A DNA stretch of 47,013 nucleotides from a virus (lineage: Duplodnaviria > Heunggongvirae > Uroviricota > Caudoviricetes): IMG/VR virus record IMGVR_UViG_2541047907_000003; one strand, 5' to 3'. Made by a program: the position numbers and the translations under genes. Below, piece by piece: positions 35,475 through 37,277 of this stretch; the stretch's first letter is position 1; every line of letters starts with the position of its first letter. The notes beneath the pieces were generated by a model, which did not search any database, was not told the origin of the DNA, and worked only from the letters and a program-made list of their open reading frames with translations.

Positions 35475-36962
35475 CTAAATATTTTGGCTCGGTCTGCTTT
35501 CTATTAAATGCAACCTGTATTTTAAAGCATGATGTGTCCTAAACTCATTTTGTAGATTAATTTTTAAGTTAGGCAAACTACTTACGTATTCCCATCTACC
35601 TTGTTTTTTTTGTCCGATAAGTGAGTTATCAAACAGGAAGTTGATATATTGACGTATCACCCCATCAGAAATACCTGCAAATTCATTACGGCACTTCTCG
35701 GAGAAATCATTAAAATCGAATGTTTCTACTTGGATAGTTTGAAGAACAGTTAGTAAGTTCTCAATTTCAGGGAATTGGTTGGACCATTCATCAATCACCT
35801 CATTGTACACACTTATAGATGCTTCACGGTCAGCTTCATAAAGCTCATTGGAAGTGTAAAGACCTGAGACATTATTTTTATGACATGCCCTAATTTTGTT
35901 GAAGTAGACAATAATATCCCTAGGCCTAAAGAAAGAACGGCGACATATATATTTAAATGGAGGAGTCCCCTGCCTAACGAATGAAACCTCAAATACTTTC
36001 CCAGATCTGTCCTTTTCGTCATCTAATATGAGATCATTAGGTTTGTATTTCTTTATCCTCTCATAATACATATCGTTTAGATTATTTTCATTCCATGAGA
36101 TTATGATAGCACTATCTTGCAATAATTTGTTTTTATCATTGAATTTCAAAGAATGATAAATATCCGTTCGTAGGAAGGGAATGACTTTTAATTTATCATT
36201 GAGGCGTTCATCAGATGCTATGTTTCTACAGACATTTAGCAGATTTATTAAAACCTTACTATATTCTTCAATTTGCCCCTCTAGCCAGTTTTCGTCTAAT
36301 TGGTCAAGGGCGATAATTATTTTTTCATTACCAATGTTATCTTTAAAAATTTTTTCAAAATACGTAAGCAATGTGAAAGCATTAGCTCTTAGCTTTTGCT
36401 TTAGCTGAGCATTCTCAGCAACTTCCTCTAACGAAATTTCACCTGCGTCCAATGATACTTCATTAAGACCAGCACTGGGCCCTTTTATGGTTTTTAATCT
36501 GGTTATTTTTGAAAACAAAACCTCCCTAAGAGTTGGGTCGGGACTACCAAAGATAGTTTTGATATAATTATGTGCCCACGTTAGATCTTTGTTTAAAGTC
36601 TCTCCAGCATCATTTTTTATTTCAATAAGTTTAGATAATGCCTTAATATAAAAAAGATACATCCAACTTTTTTGATAAGCGGAAAGTTCTCCAGCCATTG
36701 CATCCTTGTAAAGTTGATGGGCTGGCCATGGATAGTCACTAAAATTTAGACATACTGAGTAAAACCCGTTGAGATTGGCTGGTTTTCCTCTTCTAAGGTG
36801 TTCATAAATGGCTGTTTTACCAGTACCTTTTCTTCCAAGAACCAACCAAGCCCTACTTTCAATAATATCCTTTATCGCCGGTAGCTTAAAAAAATAGGTC
36901 TGTAAGTCCCGATCTGTTTCTGCTGAAACTTGAAATTCTGGTAGCCAGTCTCTAATGTCCAC
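35475..36962 (-). CDS. orphan P-loop NTPase, AT-rich; candidate anti-phage/abortive-infection protein
   Basis: 495-aa ORF; Walker A LGRKGTGKT near residue 45; candidate Walker B IIIALDQLDE near residue 220; Lys/Asn/Ile-rich composition; AT-rich 300-bp upstream region; no lambda homolog recognised. Confidence 0.6.
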   Translation of the reverse strand: MDIRDWLPEFQVSAETDRDLQTYFFKLPAIKDIIESRAWLVLGRKGTGKTAIYEHLRRGKPANLNGFYSVCLNFSDYPWPAHQLYKDAMAGELSAYQKSWMYLFYIKALSKLIEIKNDAGETLNKDLTWAHNYIKTIFGSPDPTLREVLFSKITRLKTIKGPSAGLNEVSLDAGEISLEEVAENAQLKQKLRANAFTLLTYFEKIFKDNIGNEKIIIALDQLDENWLEGQIEEYSKVLINLLNVCRNIASDERLNDKLKVIPFLRTDIYHSLKFNDKNKLLQDSAIIISWNENNLNDMYYERIKKYKPNDLILDDEKDRSGKVFEVSFVRQGTPPFKYICRRSFFRPRDIIVYFNKIRACHKNNVSGLYTSNELYEADREASISVYNEVIDEWSNQFPEIENLLTVLQTIQVETFDFNDFSEKCRNEFAGISDGVIRQYINFLFDNSLIGQKKQGRWEYVSSLPNLKINLQNEFRTHHALKYRLHLIESRPSQNI

Positions 36963-37277
36963 ATTTTCCTCTTTACATTACATTACCTTTATGTTTTTCC
37001 AAAATAAATCAAAGTCATATGGCGTATCAAGTTTTTTTGATTATTTATGAGCTCATACTCAAAAAAACTAAATCTAATTTATCTTACGTTAACTAAAGAT
37101 TTCATATGTTAGTATGCTCAAGCAATGCTACTGCTGGAGTCTGATGATATCCGTTATACACTAATTGCCACGCACACAAGCGACATCAGTTCATGGCACA
37201 AAGCAGACAACCACGCTACCTCTACCCTATGCCATGAAAATGTCAATTTACATCTTAACTAATGCACTTTAATCTCG

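Follow-up and report, generated by a model that had tools for sequence, protein, structure and literature searches.

What a lone AT-rich ATPase gene contributes to a prophage, and whether the insertion sequences (ISs) on either side of it matter, is the question raised by the 47,013-nucleotide viral record IMGVR_UViG_2541047907_000003, hereafter the window, meaning the whole stretch of DNA that was analyzed. The gene lies in a Qin-like lambdoid prophage of Escherichia coli. In an earlier note made from the letters of the DNA it had been picked out as an orphan, undescribed P-loop NTPase and a candidate defense gene. The open reading frame (ORF) reported there is a real gene with a GTG start codon (Table 1). 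A Shine-Dalgarno sequence, AAGAGGA, is located at 36967-36973, 4 bases 5' of the start, and the N-termini of homologues begin at the same MDI(K/R)xWLPEF as the window ATPase. The encoded protein is almost certainly a member of the FunZ / Sll1717 family. It is probably a stand-alone soluble AAA+ ATPase of this family, carried as optional cargo between the O-DUF977 genes and hok/sok and serving in phage exclusion.

The profile search that the earlier note had proposed as a check placed the ATPase in an existing family. The protein matched the NCBIfam model NF047389, 'P-loop ATPase, Sll1717 family', at 250.4 bits against a cut-off of 75, with the match covering residues 13-484 and profile positions 5-454 of 454, and the identical RefSeq protein bears the name of this model already. 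It was also matched by phrog_13260 (E = 7.6e-34), whose function is unassigned in PHROGs. The labels orphan and undescribed were therefore dropped, as the protein is covered by NF047389 and named in RefSeq, and Fun(Z) of phage P2, the founding phage member of the family, has been known for decades and is among the oldest known prophage exclusion genes. P2 Fun(Z) (NP_046777.1, 528 amino acids) is itself a full-length member of NF047389 at 209.3 bits and was reached via remote tblastn matches on Bacillus plasmids that bore the annotation 'FunZ'. Direct comparison of the window ATPase to P2 Fun(Z) using BLASTP resulted in E = 4e-7 over residues 20-359. Alignment of the window clade with hhalign gave a probability of 93% against the lone Fun(Z) sequence and of 97.4% (E = 1.5e-11, 410 columns) against a 30-sequence alignment of the FunZ clade. 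The motifs GxKGTGKTA, hhhhDxhD, (L/I)RxDI(F/Y), (F/Y)(F/Y)RPRDI and FLFD are common to both clades, and all residues found invariant in a 68-sequence alignment of the family (GxKGxGK, DxxD, R265 and P347-R348) are present in the window ATPase. The secondary-structure elements of AlphaFold models of the two clades, compared without direct superposition, are collinear. For members of the FunZ clade, 'funZ protein' and 'P-loop ATPase, Sll1717 family' are in fact used interchangeably in NCBI sources. By sequence comparison the window ATPase and its close homologues form a clade separate from Fun(Z), at roughly 18-20% identity.

The AlphaFold model of the window ATPase (mean predicted local distance difference test score 78.6, predicted template modeling score 0.75) runs from an AAA+ alpha/beta core with a helical insert, through a helical lid that bears the RPRD motif and a C-terminal helical region, to a winged-helix-like hairpin. 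In its predicted fold the protein belongs with AAA+ ATPases of the ORC/Cdc6-STAND type, having a lid and, at the C-terminus, a winged helix. Walker A and the candidate Walker B were found where the earlier note had placed them and both are invariant within the close clade. In the 68 family members G43, K45, G46, G48, K49, D220 and D223 are invariant down to 16-25% identity. The spacing of approximately 175 residues between the two motifs is accounted for by the helical insert, placed by the model between strand beta2 (residues 67-73) and the Walker-B strand (residues 214-220). Judged by its position, R265 is a candidate sensor-1-type arginine, and RPRD is a candidate sensor-2 or nucleotide-contact motif. 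The hairpin of the wing, IGQKKQGRWEY, is basic and clade-invariant (G450, Q451, K452, G455, R456, W457, E458 and Y459), and may constitute a nucleic-acid-binding surface. Neither Pfam search nor the AlphaFold model revealed an effector domain in the window ATPase, be it a nuclease, SIR2, TIR or another; the Pfam search returned nothing above cut-off and a sequence search of the PDB nothing relevant. A hydrophobic or membrane segment was not found, the top 19-residue Kyte-Doolittle window scoring 0.83 at a usual threshold of ~1.6, and the ATPase is therefore not a KAP-type membrane NTPase. The KAP family (e.g. Tmn) was rejected as a placement on account of this missing hydrophobic insert and because no KAP or Tmn match was obtained in Pfam or PADLOC.

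Table 1. Positions in the window of the ATPase gene, of the motifs and regions of its protein, and of other annotated features.
Feature	Position	Strand	Details
FunZ-family P-loop ATPase coding sequence, intact	35475..36962	-	GTG start, 495 amino acids, identical to RefSeq WP_000354584.1
Walker A / P-loop LGRKGTGKT, residues 42-50	36813..36839	-	G43, K45, G46, G48, K49 invariant family-wide
Helical insert, ~130 residues (79-210)	36333..36728	-	Between strand beta2 and Walker-B strand of predicted AAA+ core
Walker B IIIALDQLDE, residues 215-224	36291..36320	-	hhhhDxhDE (STAND/NACHT-like) form; D220, D223 invariant family-wide
FLRTDIY, residues 263-269	36156..36176	-	End of strand beta4; R265 invariant, D267 nearly
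RPRD, residues 346-349	35916..35927	-	Start of lid helix; P347, R348 invariant; P2 Fun(Z) has YYRPRDI
Predicted winged-helix-like C-terminal region, residues ~417-484	35511..35714	-	Invariant basic beta-hairpin
AT-rich leader, 315 nt, GC 0.337	36963..37277	-	Contains Shine-Dalgarno AAGAGGA
O-like initiator gene split by IS3-family (IS629-like) element	37741-38007, 38089-39302, 39308-39916	-	
DicF antisense small RNA and IS009 small RNA	42207-42258 and 132-330	+ and -	Rfam

The distribution of the gene was evaluated at several scales. Searching a large database yielded 302 relatives of the window ATPase, and the best 120 of these 302 are all at least 62% identical to it. Hosts of the close relatives include Methylococcaceae, Vibrio, Nitrosomonas, Arcobacteraceae, Sulfuricurvum, Bdellovibrionaceae and Tenacibaculum. 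The wider family amounts to 2,582 clusters at 50% identity in an exhaustive profile search (E <= 0.001). Scanning 185,579 species-representative genomes recovered the window clade at 18 loci, at 49-71% identity, in Pseudomonadota, Campylobacterota, Bacteroidota, Patescibacteria, Bdellovibrionota, Ignavibacteriota and Spirochaetota. DNA similarity between hosts begins and ends at the coding sequence (window positions 36961-35476), and across 26 loci no flanking ORF family was found to recur, except in same-genus duplicates. Accordingly, the mobile unit is a single gene. The leader was rejected as part of this unit on the account of not being conserved among hosts; it came into E. coli together with the ATPase gene. 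Two adjacent ORFs that the earlier note had raised as possible companions are genes of the prophage replication module and do not travel with the ATPase: the 140-residue ORF (37278-37700) is DUF977/Ren-like and the 88-residue ORF (37741-38007, minus strand) encodes the C-terminal part of an O-like initiator (phrog_391) that an IS has split, and neither accompanies the ATPase in other hosts.

Within E. coli the ATPase was found in 43 of 5,426 complete genomes (0.8%), every copy being at least 99% identical, as opposed to the DUF977 gene in 3,992 of the same genomes and the O-DUF977 backbone in roughly 74%. Without the ISs, the order of genes in such prophages is cI-like, cro/DicC, YdaT, O, DUF977, ATPase, sok/hokD, rem, DUF968, RusA and Q. 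Other strains hold a SMEK-domain gene with a methyltransferase, unrelated hypothetical genes, ordinary nin-type small genes or the prophage end at this point. In E. coli M505 (NZ_AP023219.2, 1173-3748), for example, the slot from DUF977 to hokD is filled by a SMEK protein, a class I SAM methyltransferase and a hypothetical gene. As its content differs among strains, the slot is a variable cargo site and the ATPase stands outside the replication module. The DUF977-to-hokD slot looks like a hotspot for defense cargo; the SMEK family has been validated as defense system DS-27 in the DefensePredictor study (PMC13092281). The base composition, judged by eye in the earlier note, was computed. GC content is 0.351 for the coding sequence, with 0.306 at third codon positions (GC3), and the leader is similarly AT-rich (Table 1), compared to 0.48 for the DUF977 gene, 0.50 for the O fragment and 0.50 for the entire window. 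GC and GC3 mark the ATPase gene as foreign to the O-DUF977 module. The protein is rich in Leu, Ile, Lys and Asn, much as had been remarked. Horizontal acquisition as prophage cargo, also put forward in the note, is borne out by the analysis. The ATPase gene is decaying in some E. coli lineages. Copies in E. coli H25 (NZ_CP041433.1) and H63 (NZ_CM142774.1) either carry an IS3-family insertion or are cut short, and the partial ATPase protein clusters P0107 and P0082 comprise 331 and 365 amino acids, respectively.

In other hosts the homologues occupy a range of contexts. The Serratia homologue lies in a P2-like prophage between gene A and ogr/portal, which is the P2 tin/old position, and that of Klebsiella between the tail operons of a P2-like prophage. 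In Vibrio cholerae the homologue follows Zot of a filamentous prophage adjoining rtxA. This region (JABYJL010000008.1, 718-9485) holds the CTX-like prophage genes RstR-like, Rep_trans, DUF1293, pIII-like, DUF2523 and Zot, followed, at the place of ctxAB in CTX phage, by an ORF of 97 residues and the ATPase homologue; the pair would be either phage cargo or just beyond the phage end. The 97-residue ORF was rejected as a partner as it is host-specific. The Arcobacteraceae homologue sits beside AbiTii and genes of an integrative and conjugative element, that of Tenacibaculum with PIF1, GmrSD, a reverse transcriptase and a methylase, and those of Bdellovibrionaceae and Enterobacter near BrnTA and TacAT toxin-antitoxin pairs. 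Neighbors pooled from the remaining loci include Drt2, DarG, PD-T4-6, methylases and integrases along with housekeeping genes. A remote member of 490 amino acids and 24% identity is encoded by Lactococcus phage CAP (MZ308445.1, 2896-4368) right behind the lysin gene and near the end of the linearized record; the family therefore extends to phages of Gram-positive bacteria. Further remote members are fused to GT4-conflict, EAD7 and cold-shock domains.

It is probable that the window clade has a defense role in which the lysogen, and hence the prophage, would be protected from superinfecting phages. This interpretation is based on homology to P2 Fun(Z), a validated abortive infection (Abi) gene, and on the position in a variable cargo slot. 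The defense candidate of the earlier note thus survives as a plausible exclusion or Abi protein, though not as a novel system. In the BASEL study, Fun/Z is counted among the extensively studied E. coli Abi systems and inhibits all tested Tevenvirinae, Vequintavirinae and Markadamsvirinae as well as a Felixounavirus, the T-even-like, rV5-like and T5-like phages being the groups that Fun(Z) blocks without exception in the BASEL panel (PMC8594841). P2 Fun(Z) is a lysogenic-conversion gene that blocks T5 and acts both in the lysogen and as a single cloned gene, by a mechanism described as not known. Annotation of the P2 record has fun(Z) as non-essential for P2. Sensitivity to FUdR is a further phenotype of P2 fun. 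A literature search found no post-2021 paper on the mechanism of Fun/Z, with 'FunZ' and 'phage' yielding nothing mechanistic, and no papers on 'Sll1717', WP_000354584.1 or 'PDC-M28'.

Several points weigh against an exclusion role. At ~18-20% identity to P2 Fun(Z), the phage specificity and even the defense role of the window ATPase could differ. Housekeeping genes flank many of the homologous loci and the association with defense genes is qualitative. The viral structure search of BFVD with the window model gave no significant match and did not return Fun(Z), making it uninformative. In PADLOC the window ATPase matches PDC-M28C weakly and partially (E = 4e-5, residues 212-304 only), and P2 Fun(Z) itself reaches just E = 0.003 to this model. 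PADLOC-DB v2 contains no FunZ model; the window gene would therefore be passed over by defense annotators, and a negative from PADLOC says little. Trigger, oligomerization, DNA binding and arrest, as set out below, are drawn from fold analogy and conservation, and the blocking or killing step, with no effector domain to point to, would be a guess. Finally, the ATPase is co-oriented with the early-right operon and a promoter of its own was not demonstrable, which leaves its expression in the lysogen unproven. Scans for promoters and terminators around the gene gave nothing beyond chance, a promoter-like TTGATA-18-TATTTT at 37030-37001 included. Relative to shuffled controls, the leader RNA is more stably folded (z = -3.3). 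A strong hairpin is located just past the DUF977 stop codon (arms 37190-37207 / 37221-37238), and a second one, of A7/T7 type, at 37030-37069. Other hosts conserve none of these leader features, and neither hairpin has the form of a canonical terminator.

A specific mechanism, comprising a switch, assembly on nucleic acid and a block, can be outlined, and is doubtful in its details. In the idle state the ATPase would be a monomer, either ADP-bound or free. A phage-specific cue, which could be a phage protein or an intermediate of replication or DNA degradation, might be sensed by the clade-specific helical insert or by the winged-helix region. The cue would then license ATP binding and STAND/ORC-like oligomerization on nucleic acid via the conserved basic wing, and the assembly itself may block DNA replication or expression, resulting in an aborted infection. 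Assembly is proposed as the blocking step because the protein has no enzymatic effector domain. It is unlikely that the window clade, and the whole FunZ family with it, represents a minimal, effector-less immune ATPase in which ATP-driven assembly on nucleic acid via the basic winged helix itself arrests infection. To our knowledge, no effector-less mechanism in which assembly is the arrest has been characterized for bacterial defense systems. If this were true, the phage range of the window clade would differ from that of Fun(Z), and the identity of up to 71% between distant phyla would be explained by a trigger or target that even very distant bacteria share.

The orientation of the gene also fits a benefit during lytic growth, by host takeover or counter-defense from pR, and a housekeeping or regulatory role in the cell would fit the several homologues that lie among housekeeping genes, the family being named for a chromosomal gene of Synechocystis, Sll1717. 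However, Fun(Z), which alone among the phage members has a phenotype, works against other phages both in the lysogen and when cloned, and patchy spread over at least 7 phyla at 49-71% identity is typical of mobile conflict genes, not of housekeeping genes. The EAD7 and GT4-conflict fusions of distant members, along with the weak similarity of such members to defense system DS-41, likewise suggest conflict systems, and a lytic or cellular role is improbable. A comparably small probability is given to the ATPase being a sensor-only STAND module, inactive alone and in need of a separate effector in the form of a host factor or the hok/sok toxin. The missing effector domain would be explained in this manner, some distant members do have an EAD7 adaptor or enzymatic fusions, and the ATPase abuts hok/sok in IS-free E. 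coli prophages. Set against this, no neighbor is conserved in the 26 loci, hok/sok is absent outside E. coli and P2 Fun(Z) is active when cloned on its own, although a conserved host factor may be involved.

That the ATPase is instead a prophage replication protein, acting together with the O-like protein and DUF977 as an initiator or helicase loader of the ORC/Cdc6 or DnaC type, is highly improbable. On the strand that it shares with O and DUF977 it does lie directly downstream of both, its Serratia homologue comes after the P2 replication gene A, and among known folds that of Cdc6/ORC-type AAA+ proteins, winged helix included, comes nearest to the predicted one. The replication backbone is, however, common in E. 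coli genomes where the ATPase is rare, unrelated genes fill the same slot, and GC and GC3 are foreign to the replication module. Homologues of near-equal length moreover turn up among tail genes, next to a filamentous-prophage module and at chromosomal sites outside phages. The Serratia position is the P2 tin/old cargo locus, and Fun(Z) is annotated as non-essential for P2. A lambdoid replication P or DnaC-type loader was rejected on the same counts, 43 against 3,992 of the 5,426 genomes, and on the variable slot content. At family level, no homology to a replication, partition or transposition ATPase, which the earlier note had named as evidence against its proposal, was found; the likeness to ORC/Cdc6 and TnsC is of the general AAA+ kind. 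An accessory ATPase of the flanking ISs for target selection (IstB-, TnsC- or MuB-like), or cargo of a composite transposon, can be dismissed as next to impossible, since identical copies with neither IS (L002, an IS-free sister prophage) effectively refute it, the IS3-family element is merely inserted in O and the ISEsa1 remnant is part of another block, of 3.3 kb and bounded by a 15-bp repeat, no transposase recurs beside the gene in the 26 loci, and the resemblance to TnsC and MuB is of the kind common to AAA+ proteins, SSO1545 and Cdc6 being closer.

Both IS elements are incidental to the ATPase gene. The earlier note was right as to their positions, the transposase ORF of one being 348 bp away and the other element ~1.1 kb; it is the significance of a setting between two ISs that fell away. 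The IS3-family element contains an ALIL frameshift pseudoknot at 38905-39021 and splits the O-like initiator gene, and the prophage is probably defective for replication. On the other side, sok (Rfam RF01794, 111 bits) is located at 35205-35371 on the minus strand, immediately past the ATPase stop codon. Compared to the IS-free L002 prophage, the window has an extra block of 3,301 bp (31901-35201) with relE, relB, ydfV, flxA, ydfW and an ISEsa1-like transposase remnant. This block is bounded by the 15-bp direct repeat TAGCCTGCTTCTCCT at 31886-31900 and 35202-35216 and parts the hokD coding sequence from its sok leader. Elsewhere in the window, low-GC islands at 23001-26000 and 27001-28500 hold ordinary Qin content. 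Rfam places cspA-type thermoregulator 5' untranslated regions at 25042-25427 and 27935-28327, both on the minus strand, which correspond to the Qin cold-shock protein genes; the islands adjoin a DUF1398 gene and a lysis cassette (holin, lysozyme and DUF2514). The DicF antisense small RNA (72 bits) and IS009 small RNA (221 bits) are as expected for the Qin/dicB region.

What is new here is a distinct second clade of the FunZ / Sll1717 family, the family itself and the name of the protein being already known. Modeling presents the family as ORC/Cdc6-STAND-type AAA+ ATPases with a predicted winged helix and no effector domain. The second clade is highly conserved and spread over many phyla, the gene traveling alone in lambdoid and P2-like prophages as well as next to a filamentous-prophage module. 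Fun(Z) is among the broadest exclusion genes in the BASEL panel and its relatives go unflagged by PADLOC-DB v2. The value of the locus lies in a family mechanism that is still unsolved and in the unusual conservation of the window clade between phyla, and the conserved residues provide concrete handles for working out how the FunZ family acts.

Comparison to known systems places the window ATPase among several groups of ATPases. The model is similar to the archaeal 'Arch_ATPase' proteins SSO1545 (2fna) and PABY2304 (2qen) and to Cdc6/Orc1 in its AAA+ core, lid and winged-helix fold. At the sequence level membership in these families was below cut-off (AAA_16, 14.9 bits against 32.6; TIGR02928, E = 0.12), and the ORC-CDC6-like Pfam model reached 24.3 bits against a cut-off of 27 in a homologue only. 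Cdc6/Orc1-type proteins differ in that the window ATPase has the extra helical insert, and nothing ties it to origin binding. STAND immune ATPases (Avs/AVAST, NLRs, RADAR RdrA and BREX BrxC) have a structurally related nucleotide-binding module; the likeness extends to the hhhhDxhDE form of Walker B and to genomic settings of defense and conflict, and relatives of the window ATPase gave sub-threshold matches to nSTAND3 and NPHP3_N. Unlike these systems, the window ATPase has neither a repeat-type sensor, a nuclease, SIR2 or TIR effector nor partner genes, and is a minimal stand-alone module. DS-41 ('AAA2', WP_033812887.1) is a validated single-gene AAA ATPase defense system (DefensePredictor, PMC13092281) and is similar in being a single-gene ATPase of ~500 amino acids from E. 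coli with homologues that reach archaea. Its model, NF053860, weakly matches distant members of the Sll1717 family (E = 2e-15 and 9e-8); the window ATPase itself gave no match at E up to 1 when compared to this model, as distinct from the DS-41 sequence. P2 Fun(Z) shares with the window ATPase the NF047389 family, at 528 amino acids against 495, but lies at the P2 Z/fun locus, the window gene being in a lambdoid (Qin-like) prophage downstream of replication genes. Exchange of cassettes at P2 fun via flanking inverted repeats has been reported (Nilsson 2004, cited in PMC8987985). Such repeats were not found at the window gene, where a 10-nt perfect pair in AT-rich DNA (35406/37098) was the only one, and no convincing direct or inverted repeats were found around the ATPase cassette. 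Close homologues of the window ATPase do occupy P2-type cargo positions. Both Fun(Z) and the window ATPase are single-gene prophage cargo, and both of their clades are very conserved yet dispersed over phyla.

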